64,000 nucleotides of DNA from Dehalococcoidia bacterium (GCA_965220125.1 CBDCPB010000004.1:2674270-2738269); one strand, 5' to 3'; numbered from the stretch's first letter, positions 10,525 through 60,941 are shown. Numbers and translations are program-made. The notes: generated by a model from the sequence alone, not told the origin.

Positions 10525-10781
10525 CGTGTGCTCCTCGGCGCGCGCCGATGCTACGCGATCGGCGCTGCGCGTTCGGCGAGCCCGTCCGGTCCGAGGCATG
10601 ACGGCGGGTATGCGGCCGCTGCAGCCCGGCACGTCCACGGCCTGACGCCCCGCCGAAGCGGGCCTGCGTCGCCGGATCGCGCGCCCCCCGCTCGCCGGGC
10701 AGGCTCACCGCGCAACGAGTAGGATCGGGCGGCGCCGCGCCTGACTCGTAGCGCACGACCAGCCTCGAAGGAGCCGGAGCC

Positions 10782-12524
10782 ATGACGAACAGCAACGAGG
10801 GAGGCCGCTACCGGGTGGTCTGGCCGCGCAGCGCGAGGCAACTCCAGCCTCAGCCGCTCGCGCCACGGCTGGACACGCTGGCCGGCAAGACGGTCGCCCA
10901 GCTCTGGGACTACGTCTACCGCGGCGACGAGATCTTCGACCTGCTGGAGCCACAGCTCGAGGCGCGCTACCCCGGGGTCCGCTTCGTGAGCTGGCGCGAG
11001 TTCGGCTCCACGCACGGCTCCGAGGAGCGCGAGATTCTCGCCTCGCTGCCGCAGCGCTTCAAGGAGATGGGGGTCGACGCCGTCATCTCCGGGATGGGCT
11101 GCTGAGGGAGCTGCACGCCCGCCGTGATGCGGGCAAGTGCGGCGTGCGAGTTCGCGGGCGTCCCCACCTCGTCGCTCGTCTGCGAGGGGTTCATCGGCCA
11201 GGCCGGCACCACCTCGGAGGGCCTCGGACTGCCGAACCTGCCGCTCGCGCTGGTGCCGGGGCATGTCGGCAACCAGAGCGAGCAGGAGATGGAGCGCAAC
11301 GTCCGCGAGGTGACGCTGGACGCGGTCGTCGCGAATCTGCTCGAGGCGCCCGCGGACGCACCGGCCGTCGCCGAGCCCTCGCCGCGCGAGATCGTCTTCG
11401 ACGGCACGTTCGAGGAGGTCAACCGCTACTTCTACGAGTGCGAGTGGAGCGACGGGCTGCCGGTCGTGCCGCCGACCGTCGAGAAGGTCGCGGAGTTCCT
11501 CGGCTTCACCGATCGCGACCCCGACGAGATGATCGGCGTGATCCTGCCCGACAACCGCGCGGTCACCGTCTGGAGCGTCGCGGTCAACGGCGTGATGGCG
11601 GGCTGCCGGCCCGAGTACATGCCGGTGCTGCTCGCCCTCGCCGAGGCGATGGCCGATCCCGAGTACGGCGTGGAGCACAGCGGCAACACGCCGGGCGCCG
11701 AGACGCTGATCACGATCAACGGACCGATCGCGAGGGAGCTCGGCTTCAACTTCGAGCAGGGCGTCCTGCGCGACGGCTTCATCGCGAACACCTCGATCGG
11801 CCGCTTCTGGCGGCTCTACCTGCGCAACGTCGCCGGTTTCCTGCTGCACAAGAACGACAAGGGGACCTTCGGCAACACCTGGCGCGTGGTGCTGGCCGAG
11901 AACGAGGACGTGCTCGCCGAGATCGGCTGGCCGCCCACCAGCGTCGAGATGGGCTTCGAGGCGGGCGACAACACCGTCACCATCGCGCGCTACACCGGCG
12001 GCGACATGATGGCCTCGGTCTACGGCGATACGCCGGAGCTTGTCCTGCCGTACATCGCCGACGCGGTGCTGAAGCAGAACACCTGGCAGCTGATCTTCAC
12101 CGTCGGCAAGTCGATGGGCTCGCTGCGCCCGCTGCTGGTGCTGAGCCCGATCCTGGCGCAGACGATCGCGAAGGCCGGGTGGAGCAAGCAGGACGTCAAG
12201 CAGTACCTCTTCGACCACGCGCGGCTGCCCGCCTGGGAGTTCGAGCGCTACCTCGGCGACTGGACCGATCACGTGATCCGGTCGCTGGAGTCCGAGGTCA
12301 ACCTCGGCAGGATCCCGAGGGTGTTCCTCGAATCGGATGATCCGAACCGGCTCGTGCCGATCGTGTTCGAGCCCGACGACTTCATGATCGGGGTCGCCGG
12401 CGACCCGCTGCGCAACAACGCCTGCACCTTCGCGCACAACGGCAGGCTCGGCTACCCGGTGGCGAAGCAGATCCGTCTGCCCGCCGATTGGGAGACGCGG
12501 CTCGCCGGCGCGCAAACGGGCTGA
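10782..12524 (+). CDS. candidate selenoprotein: N-terminal domain with a C-U-G-S-C motif (UGA 11103..11105 read as Sec) fused to a ~470-residue domain of unknown family
   Basis: Track ORFs 10782..11105 and 11124..12524 share one frame and are separated only by TGA 11103..11105. AAGGAG precedes ATG 10782. Read through, the peptide is ...DAVISGMGC-U-GSCTPAVMRASAAC.... A SECIS-like hairpin follows the UGA. The alternative is two coupled genes, restarting at GTG 11124. Confidence 0.6.
11110..11143 (+). promoter_or_regulatory. SECIS-like stem-loop immediately 3' of the in-frame UGA
   Basis: GCU-GCAC-GCCCGC-[CGUGAU]-GCGGGC-AA-GUGC-GGC. 11117..11122 pairs with 11129..11134. 11113..11116 pairs with 11137..11140. 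11110..11112 pairs with 11141..11143 (one G.U). There is an AA bulge at 11135..11136. Pairing checked by hand. Confidence 0.55.
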
Positions 12525-12538
12525 CGGGACGGTCCGGG

Positions 12539-13462
12539 ATGGTGCGCCGCCGCGGCAGGTACGACGTCCTCGTGATCGGCGCTGGCGTCAGCGGCCTCAC
12601 GGCCGCGCACCACGCCGTCCGCTACGGCCTCAGCACCGCCTTGATCGAGGGCGAGCCGCTGTTCGGCGGGCAGATCGTGAACGTCGATCAACTCGACGGC
12701 TATCCGGCCGACGGCGAGCTCTCCGGCGTGTCGCTCGCCGTCGGCCTCTTCGAGGGGTGCCGCTCGCTTGGCGTCTCGATCATCCAGGCCCCGGTCGAGG
12801 CGCTCTCGGTCGAGGACGGAGGGCATCTCGCGATCGCGGGCGGCGAGCGGCATCGCGCGCGGGCGGTGGTCGTGGCCTCGGGCGCACGGCTCAAGCGGCT
12901 GGGCGTGCCCGGGGAACGCGAGTTGATCGACCGGGGCGTCTCGCAGTGCGCCTCGTGCGACGCGCCGCTGTTCCGCGACCAGGACGTCGCCGTGATCGGA
13001 GGCGGGGACGCGGCGGCGCAGGAGGCGCTCGTTCTGGCCGGCTTCTGCCGCAGGGTCTACGTCGTCGCCCGCAGCTCGCTCAGGGCGAAGGCGGACTACG
13101 TCAACCGGCTCTCGAGGCTCGACAACGTCGAGTTCGTCTGGGGCTGCGAGGTCGACGAAGTCCTCGGAAGCGGCCAGGTCGAGGGCGTGCGATTGCGCGG
13201 CGTCGGGGACGGCAGCGTCTCGGAGTTGGCCTGCACGGCCGTCTTCCCGTTCATCGGCTCCACCCCGAACAGCGAGTTCCTGCCGCCCGAGCTGGAGCGC
13301 GAGGACGGCTACATCGTCACCGACACGGCGTTCGCGACCTCGCTGCCGGGTGTCTTCGCCGCCGGCGCCGTGAGGCGCGGCTACGGCGGCCATGTCGCCG
13401 AGGCAGTCGGCGAGGCCGTCTCCGCGGCGAGCGCCGCTGTCCGCTACGTTCGAGGCGAGTGA
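12539..13462 (+). CDS. low-molecular-weight thioredoxin-reductase-like flavoprotein disulfide reductase
   Basis: ORF 12488..13462 trimmed to ATG 12539. FAD motif DVLVIGAGVSG, redox-active C-A-S-C (VSQCASCDAPLF; TrxB has CATC), NAD(P)H motif VAVIGGGDAAAQEA, and C-terminal GVFAAGAV. Confidence 0.85.
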   Translation: MVRRRGRYDVLVIGAGVSGLTAAHHAVRYGLSTALIEGEPLFGGQIVNVDQLDGYPADGELSGVSLAVGLFEGCRSLGVSIIQAPVEALSVEDGGHLAIAGGERHRARAVVVASGARLKRLGVPGERELIDRGVSQCASCDAPLFRDQDVAVIGGGDAAAQEALVLAGFCRRVYVVARSSLRAKADYVNRLSRLDNVEFVWGCEVDEVLGSGQVEGVRLRGVGDGSVSELACTAVFPFIGSTPNSEFLPPELEREDGYIVTDTAFATSLPGVFAAGAVRRGYGGHVAEAVGEAVSAASAAVRYVRGE

Positions 13463-13499: not shown

Positions 13500-14441
13500 T
13501 CAGTAGCCCTCCTCGATGTCCACGACCCCTTCGAGCGGTTCGCCCGCCAGGTAGTGGCGCAGATTCGCGATGAAGATATCGACGATCCGATCGCGCCCCG
13601 CCGGCATGCTCCATGAGAGGTGGGGGGTGATCCGCGCGCGCGGGTGCGAGTAGAGCCAGTGCCCGGCCGGCAGCGGCTCCGGCTCGACCGTATCGAGCGA
13701 GGCCATCGCGACGCGCCCGTCATCGAGCGCCTCGCGCAGTGCCTCCTGGTCGACCAGCGTCCCGCGCGCGACGTTGACCAGGTGCACGCCCGGCTTCAGC
13801 TGCGCGAGGGCGGCTCGGTCGATCAGGTGGTGGGTGGCGGCGGTCGCCGGGGCGGCGAGCACGAGGTGGTCCGCCTCCCGCAGCAACTCACCGAGGTCGC
13901 TTGCCAACTCGACGCCTGGCGCCTCGCTCGGCCGCGGGCGGCGGCGCAGGGCGAGCACCCGCATCCCGAAGGGCAGCGCCCGCTCGGCGAGGGCGGCGCC
14001 GATGCCGCCCAGCCCCACCAGTCCCAGCGTCTTTCCGGACAGCGTCCCGAGCCCCGGGTCGACGCGTCGATCGGGTCGCTCGTGGATCCACGTCTGCGGC
14101 AGCCGCTTCTCGAAGGCGAGCATCGTGGCCATCACCCACTCGGCGATCGGCACGCCGCTCGCGCCGCGTGAGCAGCTGAGGGTCTGACCGTCATCGAGCA
14201 GCTCGATCGGGAACTCGTCGACGCCGGTGCCGTAGATGTGGATCCAGCGAACGCCGCTGCGCAGCGCCTCCTCCATGATCGGCACGCTGCGCGCGCCCAC
14301 CAGCAGCACCTCGCCGTCGGCGTCCTCCGGGAACGGGCCACGCGCCGGGATGTGGATCAGCTCGACGCCCTCGACCTCGCGCGTCACGCGTTCGGTCATC
14401 TCGGGTGGCATCCATGTCAGCACGCGGAGGGGAGCGCTCAC
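13500..14441 (-). CDS. D-isomer-specific 2-hydroxyacid dehydrogenase family, NAD-binding
   Basis: 313-aa ORF with a GTG start and AAGGAG upstream. Contains GKTLGLVGLGGIGAALA, LVNVARGTLVD and ITPHLS. Confidence 0.88.
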   Translation of the reverse strand: MSAPLRVLTWMPPEMTERVTREVEGVELIHIPARGPFPEDADGEVLLVGARSVPIMEEALRSGVRWIHIYGTGVDEFPIELLDDGQTLSCSRGASGVPIAEWVMATMLAFEKRLPQTWIHERPDRRVDPGLGTLSGKTLGLVGLGGIGAALAERALPFGMRVLALRRRPRPSEAPGVELASDLGELLREADHLVLAAPATAATHHLIDRAALAQLKPGVHLVNVARGTLVDQEALREALDDGRVAMASLDTVEPEPLPAGHWLYSHPRARITPHLSWSMPAGRDRIVDIFIANLRHYLAGEPLEGVVDIEEGY

Positions 14442-14572
14442 GCGTCACGACTCCTTCGTACGCTGCCGACGCGTTTCGCCCCGGCATGGCGAGCGCGATC
14501 ATAGCGCGTCGCGCGGCGGGTTCGTCGCCGGCCGCATTCGAGAGAGGCGACCAACGGGAGATCGAGGGTTTC

Positions 14573-14600
14573 TTGACAATCCGGTGCCCCGACCTATAGT
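14573..14600 (+). promoter_or_regulatory. sigma-70-like promoter candidate (TTGACA-N16-TATAGT) with a ~150-nt leader before the amidohydrolase/ABC operon
   Basis: TTGACA at 14573..14578 and TATAGT at 14595..14600, in a locally AT-richer intergenic region. Confidence 0.45.
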
Positions 14601-14754
14601 CAACAGCAGTGATATAGCGAGGGTGATAGGGCGAAGGGGGAACGCCCGCTCCGATCACCAACGGTCATCCCAGACCCCGTGGACCGGCGTTCCCGGTCCG
14701 GCGCGTTCGCGAGGCTACGCCCTCCCCCGGTCAGCGCCTCGTGTTGGAGGCAGC

Positions 14755-15966
14755 ATGATCACGGACGAGATCAAGGTCATCGACGTTGACACGCACGTAA
14801 CGGAGCCGTACGACCTCTTCACGTCGCGCGTCTCGACGAAGAAGTGGGGCGACATGGTGCCCCACGTTCGCAACATCCCCTGGGAGACGGCGAGGCACTG
14901 GGATCCGAGCGCGGACCCGGAGATGCCGCGTGACATCTGGATCCTCAACGGACAGCCCTCGTCGCCGATCGGCATCACGGCGATGGCCGGCTGGCGCGAG
15001 TGGCCTCCGGCCCACCCGTCGACCCTCGAGGACTTCGACCCCGGCTCCTACGACTCGACGAAGCGCCTGGAGCGCATGGACGAGTACGGGATGTACGCCC
15101 ACATCATCTACCCGAACGTGGCGGGCTTCGGGAATCAGAACTTCCTCAAGCTTGAGGACCCCGAGCTCATGCTCGCCTGCGTCCGCGCCTACAACGACTT
15201 CCTGCACGAGTGGTCCGCCGTCGATCCGAAGCGGCTGCTGCCGATCATGGCCGTCCCCTTCTGGGACATTGATGCGACGGTCGAGGAGATCAACCGCTGC
15301 TTCAAGCTCGGCCACAAGGGCGTGCTGTTCCCGCAGCAGCCGCACCTCTTCGGCGATTCGCCGATGCTGGCCGACCCGCACTGGAACCCCGTGTGGCACA
15401 CGGCCGAGGACCTGGGCCTGAGCATCAACTTCCACATCGGCTCCGGTAACCCGGTCGAGGTGCACGGCGGCTTTGCCGGCAACGGCTCGCAGGCGAACTA
15501 CTCCGCGGGCACCGTGCGCTTCTTCATGGACAACATGAACGGCATCATGGAGATCCTGATCTCCGGCATCTGCCACCGCCACCCCAACCTCAACTTCGTC
15601 TCCGTCGAGAGCGGCATCGGCTGGGTTCCCTACGTCCTCGAGGCGCTGGACTGGCAGTGGATGAACGCGGGCGCCCGCGAGGAGCACCCGGAGATGGAGT
15701 TGCTGCCCAGCGAGTACTTCAAGCGCCAGGTCTATGCCTGCTTCTGGTTCGAGCGTGACATCGCGCTCCGGACCATCGACCTGCTGCCCGACAACGTGCT
15801 CTACGAGACGGATTTCCCGCATCCCACGAGCATGTCGCCGGGTCCGGCATCGATCGCGGACGTGCCGAAGGACTTCATCGAGCGGAACCTCAGCTCGCTG
15901 CCGAGGGAGACGCTCGAGAAGGTCCTCCACGACAACGCGGCGCGCGTGTACCACCTCGACTACTAG
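14755..15966 (+). CDS. amidohydrolase_2 family (ACMSD-like metal-dependent hydrolase/decarboxylase)
   Basis: ORF 14236..15966 trimmed to ATG 14755 (GGAGG upstream). Contains IDVDTHVTEP, HKGVLFP, SINFHIG and ETDFPHP. Confidence 0.88.
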   Translation: MITDEIKVIDVDTHVTEPYDLFTSRVSTKKWGDMVPHVRNIPWETARHWDPSADPEMPRDIWILNGQPSSPIGITAMAGWREWPPAHPSTLEDFDPGSYDSTKRLERMDEYGMYAHIIYPNVAGFGNQNFLKLEDPELMLACVRAYNDFLHEWSAVDPKRLLPIMAVPFWDIDATVEEINRCFKLGHKGVLFPQQPHLFGDSPMLADPHWNPVWHTAEDLGLSINFHIGSGNPVEVHGGFAGNGSQANYSAGTVRFFMDNMNGIMEILISGICHRHPNLNFVSVESGIGWVPYVLEALDWQWMNAGAREEHPEMELLPSEYFKRQVYACFWFERDIALRTIDLLPDNVLYETDFPHPTSMSPGPASIADVPKDFIERNLSSLPRETLEKVLHDNAARVYHLDY

Positions 15967-16077
15967 CCGGCGAACGCGGGCGGGGCGCGTCCCTTCGCGG
16001 GCGCTCCCCCGCCGCGCGGTGTGCCGGAGGGCCGAACGGAGCAACGCCAGGGATCAGATCCGCAAGGGGGGCATCGG

Positions 16078-17961
16078 ATGAACGACGAACGCGAGCTTGC
16101 ACGGCTCATGGGGGTGCTCACCACCCGACGATCCCTGCTGCGCGGCGCGGCGCTCGGCGGCGCCGGGCTCGCCGCCGCGGCGCTGATCGGCTGCGGCGAC
16201 GAGGAAGAGGAGCCGCCCGCCCCAGCCGCGACGGCCACACAAGCCGCGGCCGCCACGCCCACGGCCACACAAGCCGCGGCCGCCACGCCCACGGCTACAC
16301 AGGCCGCAGCCGCCGCGCCCACGGCCACGCCGACCGAGGCGGCGCCCGCGGAGCCGGACTACGCCGCGCAGGCACTCGCAGACGGCGCGCCCTTCCCGTA
16401 CGGCTACGCCGAGCCCGAGGGGGCGCCGAAGGCCGGCGGGATACTGCGTATCTCCCTCCTCTATCGCGGGACGCCAGCGACGTTTGACACAGGAAAGCAG
16501 CTTGAGCTTGCGGCCTCGACGGCGACGTTCTCAGCGGACCGCCTGGTTGGGTTCGCGACCGGGCAGGATCTGGGTAAGTACGTTCCGAAGACTCAGCCGG
16601 AGCTCGCGAAGTCCTGGGAGGTGAGCCCAGACGGTCTCGAATTCACGTTCGATCTGGAGCCGAACGTCAACTACCAGAATGTGGCGCCGGTCAACGGCAG
16701 GCCGTTCATCGCGCAGGACGTAAAGCTGACCTACGAGCGGCATGCGGCAGGGGGCCTGAACCAGGCCTTCTTCGCGTACGCGGACTCCTTCACCGTGGTC
16801 GACGACCAGACGTTCACCATCCAGATGAGATCGCCGGACGCGGACCTGCCCGTGGCGCTCGCCAGCCGCCAACTACCGATCTACGCGCCTGAGCTGTGGG
16901 ACGACGGGTCGATCGACACGATGGCCATCGGCACAGGCCCCGCGATACTCACGGACGTGGAGAAGGAAGCGCAGGTGACCTTCGAGTCGAACCCCGACTA
17001 TTGGCAGGGGAAACCGTACCTCGACGGCGCGGAGCTGGTCATCATCCCCGATGTCGCCGCGCGGCTCGCCGAGTACCGGGTGGGCAGGCTCGATCATGCC
17101 AATAGCATCGTCAGAAACAAGGATCAGGCCGACGGGCTGATCGAGAGCAACCCCGGCACGCGGATCACGTCGGATCCGATTACGAACGCCATCAGCTTCT
17201 TCGCGTTCAACACCGATCACCCGAAGCTGCAGGACGACAGGGTGCGTCAAGCGATGTCGCTGGCGCTGGACCGGGAAGAGATGGTCCAGATTCTGTCCGG
17301 AGGCCTGGGCAGGGTGCTCCCGGTGTTCCTCTGGCCGCTGGTATTCGACGAGGAGCCGTCGGGGGACGAGCTCGGTCGCTGGTGGCGGCACGACCCAGCC
17401 GAGGCGAAGAAGCTCGTGCAGGCGGCCGGCGCGGACGGCGTCAGCTTGACGACCTTGTTTACGCCGTCGTACGGGGCCAGCCAGCCCAACAACATCGCGT
17501 TCGTGAGTTCGCCCTGGAAAGAGATCGGCATCAATCTCGAGTCCCAGGACGTGGACTTCCAGACATTCTCCGCGTTGCGCTTCACGAGCAAGTTCAGGGA
17601 TGACCCTGACAGCCAGATGATGCAGGGGTACTCGACGGCCGCGCCGACGGCAAAGGGCTCGTTCTTCGATCTGGTGCACTCGCAGTCCTCACAGAACGTG
17701 CACACGGTCAAGGATCCGGACATCGATACCTGGGCTGAGCAGGCGGTCGGCGAATTCGACCCGGAGGCGCGTCGCGAGCTGCATCGCAAGATCTGGGACC
17801 GCGAGCTGGACCGGGTGCTCCGCCTGTCCATGTCTCAGACGTTCAACTACACGCCGGTGCAACCGTGGCTCAGGTACTACCGGTGGAATGGAGCATTCAT
17901 TTCCGTGTACCACACCTTCGATTGGGGCTTTGGCTACCACAAGGCGTGGCTGGACAAGTAG
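16078..17961 (+). CDS. ABC transporter substrate-binding lipoprotein, family 5 (peptide/nickel/opine type)
   Basis: ORF trimmed to ATG 16078. Tat motif TRRSLLRG, lipobox AALIGC, Ala/Thr/Pro linker, then a family-5 SBP body (WQGKPYLDG..., FNTDHPKLQDDRVRQA). Confidence 0.9.
   Translation: MNDERELARLMGVLTTRRSLLRGAALGGAGLAAAALIGCGDEEEEPPAPAATATQAAAATPTATQAAAATPTATQAAAAAPTATPTEAAPAEPDYAAQALADGAPFPYGYAEPEGAPKAGGILRISLLYRGTPATFDTGKQLELAASTATFSADRLVGFATGQDLGKYVPKTQPELAKSWEVSPDGLEFTFDLEPNVNYQNVAPVNGRPFIAQDVKLTYERHAAGGLNQAFFAYADSFTVVDDQTFTIQMRSPDADLPVALASRQLPIYAPELWDDGSIDTMAIGTGPAILTDVEKEAQVTFESNPDYWQGKPYLDGAELVIIPDVAARLAEYRVGRLDHANSIVRNKDQADGLIESNPGTRITSDPITNAISFFAFNTDHPKLQDDRVRQAMSLALDREEMVQILSGGLGRVLPVFLWPLVFDEEPSGDELGRWWRHDPAEAKKLVQAAGADGVSLTTLFTPSYGASQPNNIAFVSSPWKEIGINLESQDVDFQTFSALRFTSKFRDDPDSQMMQGYSTAAPTAKGSFFDLVHSQSSQNVHTVKDPDIDTWAEQAVGEFDPEARRELHRKIWDRELDRVLRLSMSQTFNYTPVQPWLRYYRWNGAFISVYHTFDWGFGYHKAWLDK
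16231..16320 (+). repeat. 30-bp tandem repeat (3 copies) inside the SBP linker
   Basis: ACGGCCACACAAGCCGCGGCCGCCACGCCC at 16231..16260 is identical at 16261..16290. The third copy (16291..16320) has a few substitutions. Encodes TATQAAAATP three times. Confidence 0.9.
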
Positions 17962-24356: not shown

Positions 24357-24662
24357 TCAGTAGCGCTGCTCGTACCAGCCGTCGCCGGGCGGCTGCGTCT
24401 CGTCGTGGAAGAGCGTGAGCGTGCCGCCGCCCTCGAGGACGACGCGGTAGTAGCTGCGCCGCAGCGGCGGCTCGCGCCACCACTCGTCCGCGATGCGCCA
24501 CGCCTCCGCGACGCGCTCGACGGCGAGCGGTGCGTCCCGCACGCCGCGCCGCGTCCGCCGCAACTCGCGCGGCTCGCCCTCGGGGCCGGGACGCACCTCG
24601 ATCGGCCGTGGCAGGCCCAGCGGGCTGAGCGCGCCGTCCGCCGGCTGCCGCTCCGCGCTCAC
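24357..24662 (-). CDS. ImuB C-terminal domain encoded as a separate ORF in the -1 frame (GTGA overlap with the imuB stop)
   Basis: GTG at 24662..24660 overlaps the imuB TGA (24661..24659). 101 aa. VERVAEAWRIADEWWREPPLRRSYYRVVLEGGGTLTLFHDE...GWYEQRY resembles the C-terminal WW...YY...W motif region of full-length ImuB proteins as I recall them. Confidence 0.6.
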   Translation of the reverse strand: MSAERQPADGALSPLGLPRPIEVRPGPEGEPRELRRTRRGVRDAPLAVERVAEAWRIADEWWREPPLRRSYYRVVLEGGGTLTLFHDETQPPGDGWYEQRY

Positions 24663-25861
24663 GGCTCGTAGTCGGCGAGGGCGTAGCGGCGCTCGGGGAT
24701 GCGGCTCTGCGGAGCGAGCGCGACGACACGGCGCAGCGCCGCCTGCCCGTAGCGCAGCCGCAGGTGGCGGGCCATCTCGTCCAACTGCTCGCGACGCCGC
24801 GCGCCGCCCTCGCGCAGCAGCCGGGCCTGGCGGCCACGCTCGGCGGTCAGGCCGCCGAGCTCCAGCGTCAGCTCGGCCACCGGCCCGCCGAACTCCGCCG
24901 CCTCGATCGAGGGCGCGAGCGCGGTCCACAGCCGCGTGCGGTCGCCGGTCGGCTCGGTCAGCACGCGACGGCGCTCCCAGACCCGCTCGTCCTCCATCAC
25001 GGCGTTGAGCTGGACGGCGCGCACGAGACGGCCGCGCGCCACGGGCCGTGCGAGCGCGCGTCCCAGCAGTTGCCCGAAGGTGTGCAGCAGCGCCTCGCGG
25101 CCGATCAGCGGCGGCTCGGCCTGCGCGCGCTCCAGCACGCGCTCGCGCTGCGCGATGGGCGCGAGCGGCGTCGGATCTTCGCCGCGCGCGGCCAGCCAGG
25201 CGCGCCCGCCCGCCTCCCCGAGCTGCGCCTCGACGGCGTGTCGCGGCAGCGCCGCGAGGTCGCCGAGCGTGGCGATGCCGAGCAGCGCGAGCCACTCCCG
25301 CGCCGCCTGCTCCAGCGGCAGCAGCGCGGTCGGCCGCGGCGCGAGGAAGGCGCGCGCCTCGTCGCCGTCGATGCGCAGCCACGCCCCCGGTTGCGCGGCG
25401 AAGGCGGCCACGCGCGCCGTGAAGCGGCTGTCCGCCACTCCCAGCCGCGCGCCGAACTCGCGCGGAGCCGCCTCCAGCAGCGCCCGGGCGAGTGCGTCCT
25501 GCTGCGGGTAGAGGCCCTCGAGGCCGCGCAGGTCGGCGTAGACCTCGCCCGGCGCCGCCTCCTCGACCAGCGGGCTGACGGCGGCGGCGGCCTCGACGAG
25601 CTGCGAGGCGGCGCGCCGCACGCGCGCCGGCCGCGCCTCGATGACGGCGAGCGCGGGGCAGCAGGCCAGCGCCTCGCTGAGCCGCTGTCCCGGCCGCACC
25701 CCGCGCGCGGCGGCGGCCTCGCTGGCCTCGGCCACGCGCCGCCCGGAGTCATCGCTGACGGCGACGGGCCGCCCGTGCAGCTGCGGACGCGCCGCCAGCT
25801 CGGCGGCGAGCGCCGGCGATGGCACGAGCAGGCATGCGATCCGTGAGCGTCGAATCCTCAT
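24659..25861 (-). CDS. imuB: ImuB-like Y-family polymerase homologue (body, 400 aa)
   Basis: N-terminus RIACLLVPSPALAAE...GRPVAVSD...VRPGQRLSEALACCPAL, without an obvious catalytic acidic triad. Divergent from dnaE2 across a LexA box. Confidence 0.8.
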   Translation of the reverse strand: MRIRRSRIACLLVPSPALAAELAARPQLHGRPVAVSDDSGRRVAEASEAAAARGVRPGQRLSEALACCPALAVIEARPARVRRAASQLVEAAAAVSPLVEEAAPGEVYADLRGLEGLYPQQDALARALLEAAPREFGARLGVADSRFTARVAAFAAQPGAWLRIDGDEARAFLAPRPTALLPLEQAAREWLALLGIATLGDLAALPRHAVEAQLGEAGGRAWLAARGEDPTPLAPIAQRERVLERAQAEPPLIGREALLHTFGQLLGRALARPVARGRLVRAVQLNAVMEDERVWERRRVLTEPTGDRTRLWTALAPSIEAAEFGGPVAELTLELGGLTAERGRQARLLREGGARRREQLDEMARHLRLRYGQAALRRVVALAPQSRIPERRYALADYEP

Positions 25862-25888
25862 GGTTCACCCCCGCCAAGAGGCTTGCGC

Positions 25889-25918
25889 ATGGTAGCAGAA
25901 CGCACGTTCTGTTACCAT
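25889..25918. promoter_or_regulatory. LexA (SOS) box GAAC-N4-GTTC inside a 30-bp near-perfect palindrome between imuB and dnaE2
   Basis: ATGGTAGCAGAAC GCAC GTTCTGTTACCAT has 13-bp arms with one mismatch. The core GAACGCACGTTC is at 25898..25909. TACCAT hexamers lie on both strands at the palindrome ends (25913..25918 on +, complement of 25889..25894 on -). Confidence 0.7.
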
Positions 25919-25947
25919 GCCTCCCGGTGCGGCGAGGGGGTGACGCC

Positions 25948-28900
25948 GTGGCGCGTATACGCCGCGATCAGCAGCCCGGCTACATGGAGCGCTGGGACGA
26001 GTTCGAGGCCCGGCAGGCTCGGGCCGTGCCGGACACCCCGCGCTCGCGTGCGCCTCGCGATCCGGCCGCGCCCCTCGTCGGCGACGCGCTCGACGGCGTG
26101 CCCTACGTCGAACTGCACGCGCATAGCCACTACTCGTTGCTGGAGGGCGCATCGAGCCCCGGCGAGCTGGTGCGGACCGCCGTCGAGCAGGGTCACGCCG
26201 CGCTGGCGCTGACCGACCACGACGGCATGTTCGGGGCGATGGAGTTCGCGCGCGCCGCCCGCGAGGCGGGACTGCGGCCGATCAGCGGCCTCGAGCTCAC
26301 TGTCTCCGAACCGGCGGCGTCGGGCGACGACGACTGCGACGGCGGCGAGGTGCGCTCGCACCTCACGCTGCTGGCGGAGACGCGGCAGGGCTACGCCAAC
26401 CTCTGCCGGCTCTCCAGCTACGCCTTCGGGCTGCGCGAGAGCGATCGCCGTGCGCAGGAGGCGCGGCGGCTCGACCCCGTACTCCCGCTCGCCGATCTGG
26501 AGCGGCACGCGGACGGGCTGATCGTGCTCAGCGGCTGCCGCGAGGGCCGCATCCCCCGCCTCGTGCAGGCGGGACGCCGGGCCGAGGCGGCCGCGGCGCT
26601 CGAGCGCCTCGCCGGCTGGTTCGGGGCGGACCGGGTCTTCGTCGAGCTGCAGGACAACGACGTGCACGGCGACCGCCCGCGCAACGAGGCGCTGGTCGCG
26701 CTCGCGGAGCGGGCGGGCGTGGGCGTGGTCGGCACCGGCAACGTCCACTACCACGTGCGCGAGCGGCACCGGCTGCAGGACGTGCTGGTCGCGATCCGCC
26801 ATCGCGCGAGCCTCGACGAGTCCCACGCCGAGCGGCGGCCGAACGCCGAGTTCTGGCTGCGCAGCCCGCGGGAGCAGGCCGAGCGCTTCGCGCGCTACCA
26901 CCCGCAAGCGGCGGCGAACACGCTGCGGATCGCGCGCCGTTGCCGCTTCGACCTGACAGCCGACCTCGGCTACCGGCTGCCCTCGCCGCCCCTGCCCGGA
27001 GGCGTCACGCCGCTCGAGGAGCTGGAGCGGCTCTGCCGCGAGCGTCTGGGGGAGCGCTACCGCTCGCCGGCCGAGCGCGGCAAGGCCGAGGCGCAACTGG
27101 TCGAGGAGCTGCGGCTGATCGGACTGCACGACCTGGCCGGGTTCTTTCTCATCTACCACGAGATCTTCAAGCTGGCGCAGGAGGTGGCCCGCGAGGTGCG
27201 CGGGCCCGGCGCCGCCCGCAGCGTCACCAACCTGCCGCCCGGGCGCGGCCGCGGCTCCTCGGTCTCCTCGCTGGTCTGCTACCTGATCGGGCTCTCGCAC
27301 ATCGACCCGATTCGCCATCGCCTCTTCGTCGGGCGCTTCCTCAACGAGGAGATGGAGTCGCTGCCCGACATCGACCTCGACTTCCCGCGCGACATCCGGG
27401 CGGAGCTGATCGAGCGCGTCCACGAGCGCTGGGGCCGCGAGCGCAGCGCGCTCGTCGCCGCCTTCGCCACCTACCGGCTGCGCAGCGCGGTGCGCGACGT
27501 CGGCAAGGCGCTGGGGCTGCCCTCGGCGGAGCTGGACCGCCTCGCCGGGCTGGCCGGCCCCTACGACGGGCCCGGCCAGCTGCCCGAGGAACTCGCGCGC
27601 TCGCCGCAGTTCCGGGACCGCGCGGAGGCGCGAGGCTGGCGGGAGCTGGCCGCGCTCGTGCCGCAGCTCGCGGGCGTGCCGCGCCACCTCTCGCAGCACC
27701 CCGGGGGCATGGTGATCTCCTCGGGGCCGCTGATCGACTGCGTACCCTGCCAGCCGGCGGCGATGGCGGGCCGCTACCTCTGCCACTGGGACAAGGACTC
27801 CGTCGACGACGCGCGGATGGTGAAGATCGACTTCCTCGCGCTCGGCATGCTCTCGGTCGTCGAGGAGACGATCGACCTGATCGCCGACGGGCGCGGGCGC
27901 ATCGTCGACCTCTCGCGTATCGACTTCGAGGACGAGGCGGTCTACGACGCGATCTGCCGCGGCGACACGGTCGGCGTCTTCCAGATCGAATCGCGCGCGC
28001 AGATCGCGATGCTGCCGCGGACGCAGCCGCGCAACCTCGAGGATCTCACCGTGCAGGTCTCGATCGTGCGGCCGGGGCCGATCGTCGGCGGCGCGGTGAA
28101 CCCCTACGTGCGGCGTCGCGAGCAGCAGCGCCGCAACCCCGGCTACCGCCCCGCCCCGCCGCACGAGTGCGTGCGCGAGGTGCTGGAGGAGACGCTGGGG
28201 GTGGTGATCTTCCAGGAGCAGGTGCTGCAGGTCGCCCGCCACATGGGCGGCTTCACGCCCGGCGAGGCCGATCGCTTCCGCCGCTCGCTGGGCCGCAGGC
28301 GCGCGCACGAGGAACTCGATGCCTGGCGCGCGCGCTTCATGGCGGGCGCGGCGGAGCGCGGGGTGCCGCTCACGGTAGCGGAGCAGGTCTTCGGCAACCT
28401 CGCGGGGTTCGCGGAGTTCGGCTTCCCGAAGAGCCACGGCGCGGCCTTCGCGCTGCTCGCCTACCAGTCGAGCTGGCTCAAGCAGCGCTACGGCCCCGAG
28501 TTCCTGTGCGCGCTCTTCAACCAGCAGCCGATGGGCTTCTACCCGCCGCACGTGCTGACCAACGACGCCAAGCGCCACGGCGTCGCCGTCGAGCGGCCCG
28601 ACATCAACGTCAGCGCCGCCCGCTGCACGGTCGAGCTGCCCGAGGGCGCGATCCGCGTCGGCCTTGGCTACGTGCGGGGCCTCGGCGCCGCCTGGGCCGA
28701 GCGCATCGAGGAGGAGCGCGAACGCGCGGGCGAGTACCGCTCGCTGTTCGGCTTCGTGCAGCGCACGGGGCTGGGCCGGCAGGCGACGGCGCGCCTCATC
28801 CAGGTCGGCGCCTTCGACGGCTTCGGGCTGCAGCGCCGCGAGCTGCTCTGGCAGCTCGGGCTGTTCACGGGCGGGGCCGTCGCCGGGACGGCGGGCGCAC

Positions 28901-29397
28901 CCGCGGCGGAGGTGGCCGGGCGTCAGTTACGCCTCGATCTGCCGACGGCGCAAGACATGGTGACGCTGCCGGACTTCGGCCCCTACCAGCGGATGGCCGC
29001 CGACTACGCGCTGCTGGGCCTCTCGCCGGACCGCCACCCGATGCGCTTCCTGCGCCGCGCGCTCGGCGAGGGCGTCGCCTCCAGCCGCCACCTGCAGGCG
29101 CTGCCGGCCGGGCGCACGGTGGAGGTCGCGGGGCTGGTGGTCTGCCGCCAGCGCCCGCTCACCGCGCGTGGCATCGTCTTCCTGCTGCTCGAGGACGAGT
29201 ACGGCCTGATGAACATCCTCGTGCGGCGCGAGCTGGCCGAGGAGCGGCGCGACGTCGTGCGCACGGCGGCCTTCGTGCGCGCGCGCGGCGTGCTCGACGA
29301 GCGCGCCGGCGAGCAGCGCACGCTCATCGCCGGCGCCCTCGACGAGATCACGCCGGCGGGCGCGCTGCCGATGCCGTCCGGCAAGTCCTGGGCCTGA
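25948..29397 (+). CDS. dnaE2: error-prone DNA polymerase III alpha subunit DnaE2
   Basis: ORF 25819..29397. Proposed start is GTG 25948 (GAGGGGG 7 nt upstream); ATG 25984 is an alternative. PHP domain YVELHAHSHYSLLEGAS. Pol III alpha core (GRGSSVSSLVCYLIGLSHIDP, PDIDLDF, HPGGMVI). Context with imuB and the LexA box. Confidence 0.9.
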   Translation: MARIRRDQQPGYMERWDEFEARQARAVPDTPRSRAPRDPAAPLVGDALDGVPYVELHAHSHYSLLEGASSPGELVRTAVEQGHAALALTDHDGMFGAMEFARAAREAGLRPISGLELTVSEPAASGDDDCDGGEVRSHLTLLAETRQGYANLCRLSSYAFGLRESDRRAQEARRLDPVLPLADLERHADGLIVLSGCREGRIPRLVQAGRRAEAAAALERLAGWFGADRVFVELQDNDVHGDRPRNEALVALAERAGVGVVGTGNVHYHVRERHRLQDVLVAIRHRASLDESHAERRPNAEFWLRSPREQAERFARYHPQAAANTLRIARRCRFDLTADLGYRLPSPPLPGGVTPLEELERLCRERLGERYRSPAERGKAEAQLVEELRLIGLHDLAGFFLIYHEIFKLAQEVAREVRGPGAARSVTNLPPGRGRGSSVSSLVCYLIGLSHIDPIRHRLFVGRFLNEEMESLPDIDLDFPRDIRAELIERVHERWGRERSALVAAFATYRLRSAVRDVGKALGLPSAELDRLAGLAGPYDGPGQLPEELARSPQFRDRAEARGWRELAALVPQLAGVPRHLSQHPGGMVISSGPLIDCVPCQPAAMAGRYLCHWDKDSVDDARMVKIDFLALGMLSVVEETIDLIADGRGRIVDLSRIDFEDEAVYDAICRGDTVGVFQIESRAQIAMLPRTQPRNLEDLTVQVSIVRPGPIVGGAVNPYVRRREQQRRNPGYRPAPPHECVREVLEETLGVVIFQEQVLQVARHMGGFTPGEADRFRRSLGRRRAHEELDAWRARFMAGAAERGVPLTVAEQVFGNLAGFAEFGFPKSHGAAFALLAYQSSWLKQRYGPEFLCALFNQQPMGFYPPHVLTNDAKRHGVAVERPDINVSAARCTVELPEGAIRVGLGYVRGLGAAWAERIEEERERAGEYRSLFGFVQRTGLGRQATARLIQVGAFDGFGLQRRELLWQLGLFTGGAVAGTAGAPAAEVAGRQLRLDLPTAQDMVTLPDFGPYQRMAADYALLGLSPDRHPMRFLRRALGEGVASSRHLQALPAGRTVEVAGLVVCRQRPLTARGIVFLLLEDEYGLMNILVRRELAEERRDVVRTAAFVRARGVLDERAGEQRTLIAGALDEITPAGALPMPSGKSWA

Positions 29398-56244: not shown

Positions 56245-57492
56245 CTACCCGGTGACGCCGCTTGCGACGAGCGCCGCGATCTCCTCGTCGGGCATGCCGA
56301 TCACCTCGCTCAACACCTGCCCGGTGTGCTCCCCCATCACCGGGCTCGGCTCAAAGCTCACGGGATTCCGCGAGAGCTTGAATCCCGGTGCGGAGTCGAT
56401 GACCTCGCCCATGACTGGATGCTGGACCTTCCCGAAGAAGCCCCGATGCTGCAGCTGGGGATCCTCGGCGATCTCGTCGGCGGAGCACAGCGGCGAGACC
56501 GGTACTCCCGCCTCGCGCAGCATCCGCACGACATCGTCCACCAGCAGCGCTCCGGTCCACTGCGAGACAAACTCGTCGAGGTCGTCCTGCGCGCCGAGGC
56601 GGCCTTCCAGGCTGGCAAACCGTTCGTCCCCCGCCCACGCCGGATGCCCCATCACGCGCGTCAGCGCCGCCCACCGCTCCTCGCTGTCCACGGCTATGGC
56701 GCACCAGACATCGGGCTCGGCCGTGGGGTAGACGCCGTGCGGCGCCGCCGTCCGCGAGCGGTTGCCGATCCGCGTCCAGTTGTTGCCGTTCGCCGACGCC
56801 TCAAGCAGCGGCGCGGCCAGCAGCAGCGCCGCGGCCGCGGACTGCGAGAAGTCGATCCACTGGCCCTGCCCCGTCCGCTTTCGGTGCAGCAGCGCAGCGA
56901 GGAGCACGCTGGCGGCGATCGGCGGGACCGTCTGATCCGTGTAGGCGCCCGGCACGAGCGGCGGCCGGCCGGGCCACCCATTGAGTTCCGCGAACCCCAT
57001 CAGGCTCGCGAGGCCCATCCCGTATCCGGGGATGGCGCGCCACGAACCCGTCTGGCCGAACATGCCGAGGCTCAGGACGACGATGTCCGGCTTCACCTTC
57101 CGGAGTACCTCGTAGCCCAGCCCCATGCGCTCCAGCGTGCCGCCCGTGTAGTTCTCCAGCACGGCGTCCGAGCGGGCGATCAGTTTCAGCGCGACCTCGC
57201 GCCCGGCGTCCGTCGAGAGGTCGACCGCGAGGCTTCGTTTCCCGGCGTTCTGGGCGTTGAAGGACAGGCTCGAATCGAGGCTCCGCTCGCCGAGGAACGG
57301 CGGCGTGACCCGCAGCGTGTCGAGACGCTTCGAGCTTTCGACGCGGATGACGTCCGCGCCGCACTTCGCGAGGTAACGCGATACGGATGGGCCGGCGATG
57401 ATCCAGGAGAGGTCCGTGACCCGGATGCCTTCGAGCGCCCCCGGCGCCGGGGCTGCCCCAGCGCCGGTTGGCGAGCCACGATCTTCCCCCAC
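56245..57492 (-). CDS. family III CoA-transferase, subunit/paralogue 2 of a tandem pair
   Basis: ORF 56245..57528. Preferred start is GTG 57492 (AGGAGG 5 nt upstream). Contains GIRVTDLSWIIAGPSVSRYLAKCGADVIRVE and NAGKRSLAVDL. Confidence 0.88.
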   Translation of the reverse strand: MGEDRGSPTGAGAAPAPGALEGIRVTDLSWIIAGPSVSRYLAKCGADVIRVESSKRLDTLRVTPPFLGERSLDSSLSFNAQNAGKRSLAVDLSTDAGREVALKLIARSDAVLENYTGGTLERMGLGYEVLRKVKPDIVVLSLGMFGQTGSWRAIPGYGMGLASLMGFAELNGWPGRPPLVPGAYTDQTVPPIAASVLLAALLHRKRTGQGQWIDFSQSAAAALLLAAPLLEASANGNNWTRIGNRSRTAAPHGVYPTAEPDVWCAIAVDSEERWAALTRVMGHPAWAGDERFASLEGRLGAQDDLDEFVSQWTGALLVDDVVRMLREAGVPVSPLCSADEIAEDPQLQHRGFFGKVQHPVMGEVIDSAPGFKLSRNPVSFEPSPVMGEHTGQVLSEVIGMPDEEIAALVASGVTG

Positions 57493-57528
57493 GAGCGCCT
57501 CCTGACCTTTCGTCTCTGGACCCGACAC

Positions 57529-58797
57529 CTAGATGACACCGGATTGCCGAGCCGCTTCCAGCTCGTCGCGCGTCAGGCCGATCTCTCCGCCGTACACATC
57601 CTGATTGTGTTCGCCGGGCGCTGGCGCCCGCAGGCCCTCGCCCCAGTCGAGGAGCGAGGAGAAGAAGTACCGCCCCGGCGCGGCGATGCCCTCGTCGTCT
57701 TCGCCGCGGCCGAGGGGCTGGCGCGGCATCTGCCCAAGTTCGGTCAGCGGCTCCAGGACGAGGATGTCCGAGGGGCGCGAGATCGGAAAGATCATCAGCC
57801 TGTGCTGCAGGCTGTCGCGCAGCAGTTCGGCGCTGGTCTTCGTGAGGAAGAACTGCTCGAACTGCTCCTCCGCGGCCACCAGTTCGTCGCTGTCGAGGAC
57901 GCCGTACTCGTAGGCCATCCAGTCCATCCCGGTGACATTGCTGGTCCAGCCGCTCTCCCTCATCCAATCGGCGAGGTTCTGTACGAATTTGCTGTTCACG
58001 CCACCGAGAATCTGGAAGTTGATGTAGCCGTCGGCGCAGCGGAAGACGCTCCTGCGTCCGGTCAGCCCCAGCGACGCCATCGCCTGATCGCCCTGGCGGG
58101 CGAAGTTGGTCCGCTCGGCCTGCCACTTCGCGAGGGCGGCGCGGCCGAACAGCTCGACGATCACGTCGTGGACGGCGACGTCGACGTGCTGGCCGTATCC
58201 GGACTGCTCCCGCGCCATGAGGGCCGTCAGCGTCCCCGTCGAGGCCTCCGCGGCGGCGAGCAGCACCGCCTGGTCGACGCTGAGCCGGTTCGGCGGCAGA
58301 TCGGGGTAGCCGTTGGAAGCGACGTAGCCCGCCATCGCCATGCTGATGAGGTCGGTAGCCGGGAACTCCGCGTACGGACCGCTGGTTCCAAACGGGGTAA
58401 TTGAAGTGACGATCAGCTCCGGGAACTCACTGCAGAGCTGTTCGTGATCAAGCGCCCGCGGATGCATGGCGCCGGGCGGGGAGGATTCGATCAGCACATC
58501 GACTCGGCCGAGCAATTCGCTGAACAGCCGACGTCCATATTCGTCGCCCAAATTCAGGGTGATGCCGCGCTTGTTCAGATTCAGGAAGTTCCAGGAGAGG
58601 CTGACCTCCTGCTGCCCTGCGGCATCCGGGGCGTCGCCGCCCGGCGCGTGGGGCGGGAGCGCCCGCTCCTCCTCCCCGCCTGGCGGCTCGGCCTTGATCA
58701 CATCGGCGCCGAGATCTCCGAGGATGCGCCCGCAGAAGGCTGCATCGCCGGAGGTGATGTCGAGGACGCGAACGCTGCTCAGTACCGGGATGCGCAT
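57529..58797 (-). CDS. family III CoA-transferase, subunit/paralogue 1 of a tandem pair
   Basis: VRVLDITSGDAAFCGRILGDLGADVIKAE and NLNKRGITLNL. 422 aa. Confidence 0.88.
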   Translation of the reverse strand: MRIPVLSSVRVLDITSGDAAFCGRILGDLGADVIKAEPPGGEEERALPPHAPGGDAPDAAGQQEVSLSWNFLNLNKRGITLNLGDEYGRRLFSELLGRVDVLIESSPPGAMHPRALDHEQLCSEFPELIVTSITPFGTSGPYAEFPATDLISMAMAGYVASNGYPDLPPNRLSVDQAVLLAAAEASTGTLTALMAREQSGYGQHVDVAVHDVIVELFGRAALAKWQAERTNFARQGDQAMASLGLTGRRSVFRCADGYINFQILGGVNSKFVQNLADWMRESGWTSNVTGMDWMAYEYGVLDSDELVAAEEQFEQFFLTKTSAELLRDSLQHRLMIFPISRPSDILVLEPLTELGQMPRQPLGRGEDDEGIAAPGRYFFSSLLDWGEGLRAPAPGEHNQDVYGGEIGLTRDELEAARQSGVI

Positions 58798-58982
58798 GAA
58801 CTGACAGTCCTCGTCGTGGAGGTCCAGGCCGCCGACCAGGCATCGGACGAATGAAATGCTGCCTGCTGCGTCGGCCGCGACACCCCGGGTTCGCTGAGCA
58901 GGTGCTCACTCTGGATCAGGCTGCCGCCGGGGTCAATCTGCCGGCGGGACTCGCCCGCCTCTCCAGAGACGCCTCGTCGCCG

Positions 58983-59708: not shown

Positions 59709-59954
59709 CGCCGTCCCTGCATGTCGGGAAATCTCTCATATCGGCTGTCTTTGACTCATGAGGAGGGTTGCTGAACCAGTACCTCCGGCTCGCCGAACTG
59801 CACACATCCGTGATTGACAGCGGTCACGGTCGGATGGTACTGATCCGGCATTCGGCGGGCAAATGCCAGCCCCCCCGGGCCCTGCGTGACCAACGGGCCT
59901 GTATGCGTGTGCGTGCATGCACGCTGCGCGGGCATCAGGACAGGCGGGACATGT

Positions 59955-60866
59955 ATGACCGGGCAGCAGAGTGATCAGCTAGGCGCGGACTTCCGGACAG
60001 GCGAAGAGGAAAATCCCGAGCAGCTTGTCCTGTACGAAAAGGTCGACAAGCACATCGCGCTGATTACGCTCAACAGACCCGAGCGTCTCAATGCGATGTT
60101 GGCACCCTGGAGTTTCAACGAGCTGAGCAACAAGATCCAGCGGGCAGAGGATGACGACGAGATCAAGGCGATCATCCTCACGGGGGCAGGGCGAGCCTTC
60201 TGCGCCGGCGTGGACCTGCGCCGCACCCCGGTTGAGGTTTCGGGACTTCGCCCCGGGCAGCGGCTTCCGCAGTCCCTGCGGATGCATCGGCCGGGCCAGT
60301 GGGGCGGGGGCAGGAACCTGCTCAACTGCGACAAGACCGTGATTGCCGCCGTCAACGGCGCCGCGGTCGCAGCCGGATTCCACTACGTCATCCAGTGCGA
60401 CATCGTCGTGGCGAGCGAGACCGCGACGATGGGCGAGCCGGAATCGCGCATCGGCTTTGCCGGCTTCACGCCGGACATGGTGGTGATGCTGCAGAAGCTC
60501 GGGATCAATCGCGGTCGCGAGGCGATCCTCACGGGGCGGATGATGCCGGCGCAGGAACTCAAGGAGTGGGGCTTCGTCGCATCGGTCGTTCCGCCGGACC
60601 AGCTGATGGACGAGGCGATGCGCTACGCGAAGATGGTCGCGTGGCACTCGACCGACAACCTGATGCTGGGGCGACGCTCGATGCGTCTGTTCTGGGATCT
60701 GATGGGCGTGCCGGCCTACAACACCTGGACCAGCATCGCGCACCCGCTGTTCACCAACCTGGTGTGGCGGGACGACGAGTTCAACTTCCTGCGTGAGCGG
60801 AACAAGCGCGGGCTGCGCGGCGCCCTGGACGAGATGGGGCGCCAGTGGGACGAGCTCGGGTTCTAG
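59955..60866 (+). CDS. enoyl-CoA hydratase/isomerase (crotonase) family
   Basis: ORF 59886..60866 trimmed to ATG 59955. Contains ITLNRPERLNA and ILTGAGRAFCAGVDLR. Confidence 0.88.
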   Translation: MTGQQSDQLGADFRTGEEENPEQLVLYEKVDKHIALITLNRPERLNAMLAPWSFNELSNKIQRAEDDDEIKAIILTGAGRAFCAGVDLRRTPVEVSGLRPGQRLPQSLRMHRPGQWGGGRNLLNCDKTVIAAVNGAAVAAGFHYVIQCDIVVASETATMGEPESRIGFAGFTPDMVVMLQKLGINRGREAILTGRMMPAQELKEWGFVASVVPPDQLMDEAMRYAKMVAWHSTDNLMLGRRSMRLFWDLMGVPAYNTWTSIAHPLFTNLVWRDDEFNFLRERNKRGLRGALDEMGRQWDELGF

Positions 60867-60941
60867 AGCGCCCAGGGTCCAGGCCGATGGTACGCTCCCG
60901 ATCGCGGGGGCGCGCAGCCAGTGCTGCGCAGGGAGGACGAG

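Follow-up and report, generated by a model that had tools for sequence, protein, structure and literature searches.

A hairpin that directly follows an in-frame UGA codon was analysed in a stretch of 64,000 nucleotides from a Dehalococcoidia bacterium (GCA_965220125.1, CBDCPB010000004.1:2674270-2738269; called the window in the following, with positions counted from its first letter). This hairpin, at 11110..11143, is very probably a bacterial selenocysteine insertion sequence (SECIS) that lets the UGA at 11103 be read as selenocysteine (Sec) within one gene at 10782..12524, as judged from the comparison with related genes. An earlier note, drawn up from the window alone, had proposed such an element just 3' of an in-frame Sec-UGA, and this proposal has held: the UGA lies inside one UGSC domain, it is aligned with a cysteine in homologous proteins, and the hairpin is lost in those homologues that carry the cysteine codon.

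One gene across an in-frame UGA

The UGA at 11103 separates two open reading frames (ORFs), 10782..11105 (107 aa) and 11124..12524 (466 aa), which are in the same frame. The GC content of third codon positions amounts to 0.92 before the TGA and to 0.96 after it, i.e. the coding signal is intact on both sides, and among the 1374 TGA triplets on both strands of the window this is the only one that has a convincing coding signal both before and after it. The read-through product matches the Pfam family PF24696 (UGSC) with 107.6 bits (cutoff 25; E = 1e-30) over residues 12-183, and this match spans codon 108, the position of the UGA. Moreover, the N-terminus predicted from the ATG at 10782 aligns with the N-termini of full-length homologues, and full-length homologues with a cysteine are collinear with the read-through product. 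On this sequence evidence, the two ORFs are one predicted selenoprotein gene and not two separate genes (Table 1).

A homology search retrieved more than 5,000 relatives of the product. Among the best 120, the majority have a length of about 465 aa, begin with M(L)RASA and align to no more than the final 80% of the query; in approximately 105 of these 120 entries, the deposited ORF lacks the N-terminal part, starting just past the Sec-UGA with a length of about 443-470 aa. The M(L)RASA starts are the product that is expected of a gene caller which restarts past an in-frame stop codon. Thirteen of the best 120 relatives are about 580 aa long, and all 13 have a cysteine at the position of the TGA, within the motif G-[A/C]-C-G-S-C. 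Such a pairing of Sec and Cys at one position is the standard signature of selenoproteins. A genomic scan, for which one genome per species was used, yielded 80 loci from Dehalococcoidia, Alpha-, Beta- and Gammaproteobacteria, Acidobacteria and Myxococcota. All 80 have TGA at the homologous codon, and there are 83 UGA sites if the window is counted.

The hairpin and its conservation

The hairpin begins with the fifth nucleotide after the UGA and reads GCUGCAC GCCCGC CGUGAU GCGGGC AA GUGC GGC. Its apical stem consists of six base pairs, all of them G/C, between 11117-11122 and 11129-11134; the lower stem consists of four base pairs between 11113-11116 and 11137-11140, with U.G, C-G and G-C as possible further pairs. 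Sequence, coordinates, both stems, the AA bulge and the start of the loop agree base for base with the description in the earlier note. Folding with RNAfold, which had been suggested there as a check, returned the same hairpin as the minimum free energy (MFE) structure, with -23.0 kcal/mol for the hairpin alone. With regard to folding energy, the 45 nt following the TGA at 11103 rank among the top 1.5% of the 1374 TGA triplets of the window.

For the comparison of the hairpin between genes, 82 distinct sequences with the TGA (Sec forms) were available. Genes for the Cys form were retrieved by a degenerate pattern that left all wobble positions open, which gave 19 distinct sequences encoding the same peptide. 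If positions are counted from the T of the TGA as 0, the wobble positions +20, +23, +26 and +29 are fixed in 100% of the Sec forms, +17 in 95% and +14 in 84%. The fixed sites 11120, 11123, 11126, 11129 and 11132 lie in the apical stem and the loop, and the major base at the flanking wobble sites reaches only 43-71%. Over the whole gene (138 conserved-codon columns in 81 genes), only five columns are fixed to at least 95%, and these are the consecutive codons for P-A-V-L-R at 11118-11132; the other 131 conserved-codon columns have a mean wobble fixation of 0.62 and a maximum of 0.93. Since the fixed wobbles are confined to the codons of the hairpin, shared ancestry cannot explain their conservation. 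They include the unpaired loop bases C11123 and G11126, and all 82 sequences agree in the loop bases C, G, U and G. This invariance of unpaired wobble bases points to sequence-specific recognition rather than to mere stability of the structure.

In the 19 Cys forms, the same wobble positions vary freely (entropy 1.2-1.9 bits). The conservation of the hairpin in homologues that keep the UGA, on which the earlier note had made its proposal depend, is seen throughout the Sec forms: the core CCY-GCC-GTG-NTG-CGG-G is present in 82 of 82 Sec forms but in only 1 of the 19 Cys forms (Fisher p = 5e-19). Similarly, at least five of the six apical pairs are present in the MFE fold of 81/82 Sec forms and of 1/19 Cys forms. 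The mean MFE is -23.8 kcal/mol for the Sec forms and -16.1 kcal/mol for the Cys forms, a gap of 7.7 kcal/mol (p = 2e-9) at equal GC content (0.72 versus 0.71). With a covariance model derived from the Sec forms, the window site reaches 71.3 bits, compared to 15-38 bits for the Cys-form sites and 18.5 bits for the next-best match in the window.

Two of the Cys-form (TGC) genes, L085:1583-1630 and L104:1487-1534, keep much of the SECIS core and score 32.5 and 37.8 bits, compared to 15-26 bits for the other Cys forms; the gene in L085 retains GCC GTG TTG CGG GC. These two genes may be recent Sec-to-Cys conversions.

The base pairing itself is also conserved. In the 13-bp structure, 92.5% of the cells are paired over 77 distinct rows, compared to 23-51% after a shift of the 3' partners by 1-3 columns. 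Compensatory changes exist at two pairs: G11117-C11134 is replaced by A-U in 7 sequences, by way of the synonymous Thr codon ACA together with an Ala-to-Val replacement, and C11111-G11142 is replaced by U-A in 8 sequences. Pairing is less strict in the lower stem, where the A-U pair is broken in 24 of the 77 rows, and RNAalifold favours an alternative two-pair register. As far as sequences can tell, the comparative evidence for the hairpin is decisive and lies far beyond chance.

Table 1. Coordinates of the predicted selenoprotein gene, its SECIS hairpin and the adjacent flavoprotein gene in the window
Feature	Position	Strand	Remarks
Shine-Dalgarno-like AAGGAG	10768..10773	+	8 nt upstream of the real start ATG 10782; read from the sequence
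Predicted UGSC-family selenoprotein gene, 580 residues, fused to an uncharacterised C-terminal domain of about 400 aa	10782..12524	+	ATG 10782; Sec-UGA is codon 108; stop TGA 12522-12524
Predicted Sec-encoding UGA, U of the C-U-G-S-C redox motif	11103..11105	+	TGA in all 80 related loci; Cys in homologues of about 580 aa
Complete predicted SECIS hairpin, 13 bp including the lower-stem extension	11110..11143	+	MFE fold, -23.0 kcal/mol; pairing across 77 rows
Apical minihelix, predicted SelB-binding part (stem GCCCGC/GCGGGC and loop CGUGAU)	11117..11134	+	Starts at the 12th nt after the UGA
Apical loop C-G-U-G-N-U, 6 nt	11123..11128	+	G at loop position 2, then U; starts 20 nt after the U of the UGA
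AA bulge of 2 nt, 3' strand	11135..11136	+	First base free (A/G/C/T); major base at +32 43%
C-terminal domain, residues ~190-580	11370..12521	+	No recognised family or fold relative
Thioredoxin-reductase-like flavoprotein gene	12539..13462	+	14 nt downstream of the selenoprotein gene; ATG 12539; Pyr_redox_2, E = 7.5e-38

Comparison with known bacterial SECIS elements

The bacterial SECIS (bSECIS) model of Zhang and Gladyshev (2005), as summarised in PMC13188914, allows a loop of 3-9 nt, an upper stem of 4-16 bp, a distance of 16-37 nt between the UGA and the loop and an MFE of -7.5 kcal/mol or lower. It also expects a G at loop position 1, position 2 or both, usually with G or U as the next base. 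The distance of 16-37 nt and the G in the loop, which the earlier note had given, are confirmed by this source. The window hairpin agrees with the model in being located inside the ORF, immediately 3' of the in-frame Sec-UGA, and in having a loop of 6 nt with G at position 2 and then U, an upper stem of 6 bp, a UGA-to-loop spacing of 17 nt and an MFE of -23.0 kcal/mol. Besides the window, 81 of the 82 homologues stay within these limits (loop 6 nt, stem 5-7 bp), and the MFE of the hairpin across the homologues is -19.8 kcal/mol on average (range -23.7 to -12.1). As is expected of a bSECIS, the structure is conserved in the UGA homologues and dispensable in the Cys homologues. There are also differences, however. 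The loop misses the commonest sub-pattern N1-G-[G/U]-N-N2 with N1 and N2 paired (here C...A/U/C), and the primary sequence of the element is nearly invariant across phyla, whereas the literature stresses how little the bSECIS elements of different genes resemble each other.

The experimentally characterised archetype is the SECIS of E. coli fdhF, which we measured in the same way on NC_000913.3. In both elements, an apical helix of 6 bp starts at the 12th nucleotide after the UGA, the loop follows after 18 nt (fdhF) or 17 nt (window), and both loops contain GU. The fdhF element has a GGUC loop of only 4 nt, and a U bulges from the 5' strand of its apical helix, whereas the window element has the 6-nt loop CGUGAU, an unbulged apical helix and, below it on the 3' strand, the 2-nt AA bulge. 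There is no sequence similarity between the two, and the covariance model from the Sec forms does not match fdhF. A spacing of 11 nt and a minimal SECIS of 17 nt were reportedly described for fdhF by Liu and co-workers in 1998; the comparison made here uses the direct measurement on fdhF.

Proposed mechanism and alternative explanations

During translation, SelB carrying Sec-tRNA(Sec) would bind the apical minihelix 11117..11134. The start of the minihelix 11 nt past the UGA would place the tRNA at the A site on arrival of UGA 11103, which would then be decoded as Sec instead of stop. The product would be a selenoprotein of 580 residues with a C-U-G-S-C redox centre in its N-terminal UGSC domain. 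The thioredoxin-reductase-like flavoprotein, whose gene follows directly downstream, would probably keep this centre in the reduced state.

Several observations weigh against a SECIS function of the hairpin. The fold of the single sequence is unremarkable in DNA of 70% GC: its z-score is -0.72, and an equally good fold is reached by 44 of 200 dinucleotide shuffles. A scan of the whole window against Rfam (15) at gathering scores gave no match, and the best match of a permissive Rfam scan around the hairpin was an unrelated small RNA (E = 0.96), i.e. the element is not represented in Rfam 15. The covariation of the stems, for which the earlier note had called, was found at the two pairs described above but not in the inner part of the apical stem, where the five innermost of the six pairs never vary on both sides, so that the support there is conservation and not covariation. 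One-sided variation is to be expected in these pairs, since none of them contains more than one wobble base and the opposite base is dictated by the peptide, which leaves the wobble base alone open to selection. At the protein level, the product scores 53.7 bits against the NCBIfam equivalog NF041046, which describes the standalone UGSC protein of about 147 aa, and remains below the cutoff of 125. The product belongs to a divergent fused subfamily and is not the NF041046 equivalog, and because of such scores annotation pipelines miss these genes. Finally, selA, selB and selD were not found among the 40 ORFs scanned in the 64-kb window (about 15 smaller ORFs lay outside the scan), and ARAGORN detected no tRNA-Sec and in fact no tRNA at all in the window. 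The ability of the host to insert Sec is therefore assumed.

Three other explanations have to be weighed against decoding of the UGA by way of a SECIS. The UGA at 11103 might be a true stop, with GAGGGAG as Shine-Dalgarno sequence for a restart at GTG 11124 or ATG 11127, so that two polypeptides of 107 and 465-466 aa would result and the hairpin would be incidental or modulate the restart. The earlier note had raised this as a caveat, and the purine run (11104-11110) and both start codons are indeed present where it placed them; furthermore, it is the 465-aa ORF that gene callers report for most relatives. However, GAGG follows automatically from the codons UGA-GGN, and the extended GGGAG is specific to the window, as the wobble base of this glycine codon varies among the sequences (C 65%, G 16%, A 11%, T 9%). 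The GTG lies 16 nt from GAGG and in the loop of a hairpin of -23 kcal/mol, and the codon at 11127 is ATG in 7/82 sequences and TTG or CTG in 75/82. With a restart, the codons for G-S-C-T-P-A would be skipped in translation, and both the UGSC domain and its redox motif would be split. The Cys-form homologues are continuous proteins. A restart also leaves the wobble fixation in the UGA forms only without an explanation. We therefore give the restart a very slim chance, and the caveat has not stood up to the comparison. Secondly, GC-rich DNA that encodes the conserved peptide T-P-A-V-L/M-R-A might yield the hairpin as a by-product, with the TGA being a lesion in a pseudogene or an error in sequencing; the chance of this is next to nil. 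The single-sequence fold, which is no better than that of the shuffles, would suit such a by-product, and half of every base pair comes from codon positions one and two of the peptide anyway. But the 19 Cys-form genes, with the same peptide and equal GC content, use all synonymous codons and do not form the hairpin, and gene-wide the fixed wobbles are found in the hairpin codons only. A lesion or an error is also at odds with the fact that 80 independent assemblies, drawn from several phyla, all have TGA at this codon, with the coding signal intact on both sides.

More thought has to be given to a recoding that does not depend on SelB, in which the hairpin would stimulate near-cognate read-through of the UGA (for instance by Trp, Cys or Arg) or pausing, and not the insertion of Sec. 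It is well established that downstream structures can stimulate the read-through of stop codons, and the lack of visible Sec machinery in the 64-kb window would fit as well. Nevertheless, the position of the UGA is strictly aligned with a cysteine in a redox motif of the type U/C-x-x-C, the invariance of C-G-U-G among the unpaired bases of the loop points to sequence-specific recognition by a protein, spacing and loop fit both the SelB-dependent model and fdhF, and UGSC is a recognised selenoprotein family. This kind of recoding is thus improbable, with a slim chance at best.

The UGSC family and the fused architecture

UGSC-containing proteins were among the most abundant selenoprotein families in the Global Ocean Sampling (GOS) metagenomes, with 255 Sec and 21 Cys forms (PMC2398784), and they are also covered as a selenoprotein family in PMC9312934 and PMC13188914. 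The gene in the window resembles this family (PF24696; NF041046; PMC2398784) in its U-G-S-C motif with UGA, in the Pfam match that spans the UGA and in the fact that Cys homologues are a minority. It differs from the standalone UGSC protein of about 147 aa by an extra C-terminal domain of about 400 aa. A 'UGSC/Unknown_1' fusion was reported in 2008 by Zhang and Gladyshev (PMC2398784), so that the fused architecture has probably been reported already, and the C-terminal domain may correspond to 'Unknown_1'. The gene is a member of a known selenoprotein family and adds nothing to the knowledge of Sec decoding itself.

There is some resemblance to selenoprotein B of D-proline reductase and glycine reductase (PrdB/GrdB), which share the U-x-x-C arrangement, and residues 88-139 give a weak match to TIGR04483 (PrdB; E = 0.0054). 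However, this match reaches 16 bits compared to a cutoff of 300, and no partners of the PrdA/GrdA type are encoded nearby. The similarity is a lead only.

In eight Burkholderiales loci (L027, L037, L040, L042, L046, L050, L053 and L055), a split version adjoins the fused gene. It consists of an ORF for a standalone UGSC-type selenoprotein ('SGD*GSCSSWSVHD'), followed by an ORF about 33% identical to the C-terminal domain, for example L040:5028-5474 and L040:5662-6492 with the Sec-TGA at L040:5253. The long match spans in Burkholderiales homologues had been considered as an insertion or intein, but this was rejected, since the additional length is due to the two modules being present a second time, in split form. 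The occurrence of the modules either as a fusion or as neighbours links UGSC and the C-terminal domain. The split-type UGSC paralogues of the eight loci have a different hairpin sequence with the same geometry (11 nt, 8-bp stem, GUG loop). Two further loci, L013 (3322, 6830) and L049 (3863, 114), contain two fused-type UGSC genes each within a few kb. All of these genes share the SECIS core and carry a TGA of their own, and they look like local paralogues.

A flavoprotein neighbour and the C-terminal domain

The gene immediately downstream in the window matches TIGR01292 end to end with 254 bits, which is below the equivalog cutoff. A homologue of this flavoprotein is encoded at most 3 kb upstream or downstream of the UGSC-fusion gene in 32/80 loci across phyla. 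Such a conserved neighbourhood suggests a redox partner, and the flavoprotein is the probable redox partner of the selenoprotein.

An AlphaFold2 (AF2) model of the read-through product is confident (predicted local distance difference test, pLDDT, 86.2; predicted template modelling score, pTM, 0.87). It places Sec108 between a strand (residues 100-106) and a helix (residues 111-124), which in the model is the usual geometry of C/U-x-x-C centres. The C-terminal domain gave no Pfam match even at E values up to 5, no match in a sequence-profile search of the PDB and, despite the confident model, only generic alpha/beta matches with a template modelling (TM) score of at most 0.18 in a Foldseek search against the PDB. 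Its invariant residues include Cys275 in A-V-N-G-V-M-A-G-C, and it contains the motifs S-G-N-T-P-G, R-D-G, T-W-R-V-V and E-N-E.

One could speculate further, although we regard this joint reading as rather doubtful, that the fused protein and the flavoprotein form a widespread, uncharacterised selenoenzyme system driven by NAD(P)H in marine Dehalococcoidia and many Proteobacteria. Sec108-x-x-Cys111 might then relay electrons to the C-terminal domain, with its unseen fold and invariant Cys275, or attack a substrate therein. The nearly invariant SECIS might in the same way be a 'portable' element that suits the SelB proteins of very different bacteria and would enable horizontal spread.

Other features of the window

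The only other candidate for a Sec-UGA in the window, at 9121, was rejected, as it is the true stop of a gene of the major facilitator superfamily and faces an antisense gene. A gene resembling Y-family polymerases (Pfam IMS; 24659..25861, minus strand) adjoins, in divergent orientation, an error-prone DnaE2-type gene (25819..29397, plus strand; NF004225, 985 bits), and the two together resemble a mutagenesis cassette. In three further places, two adjacent genes are open in the same frame across a single TAG: an amidohydrolase and an SBP_bac_5 gene (14236..15966/15967..17961, plus strand), an ECH and an acyl-CoA dehydrogenase gene (59844..60866/60867..62186, plus strand) and two CoA-transferase genes (56245..57528/57529..58905, minus strand). 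Since the genes belong to different families, these TAG-joined pairs are probably chance coincidences of frame.

Significance

The gene is a clean example of a SECIS that is laid over a conserved peptide through wobble positions alone. The subfamily can be recognised by the signature ACG CCY GCC GTG NTG CGG GC, which begins 9 nt past the TGA, with the apical stem from 11 nt past it. The value of the finding lies mainly in annotation: there are thousands of relatives, and most of them have been deposited as N-terminally truncated "hypothetical proteins" of 465 aa that lack the redox centre. Beyond this, the conserved flavoprotein, as the probable partner, and the C-terminal domain of unknown fold are worth characterising.

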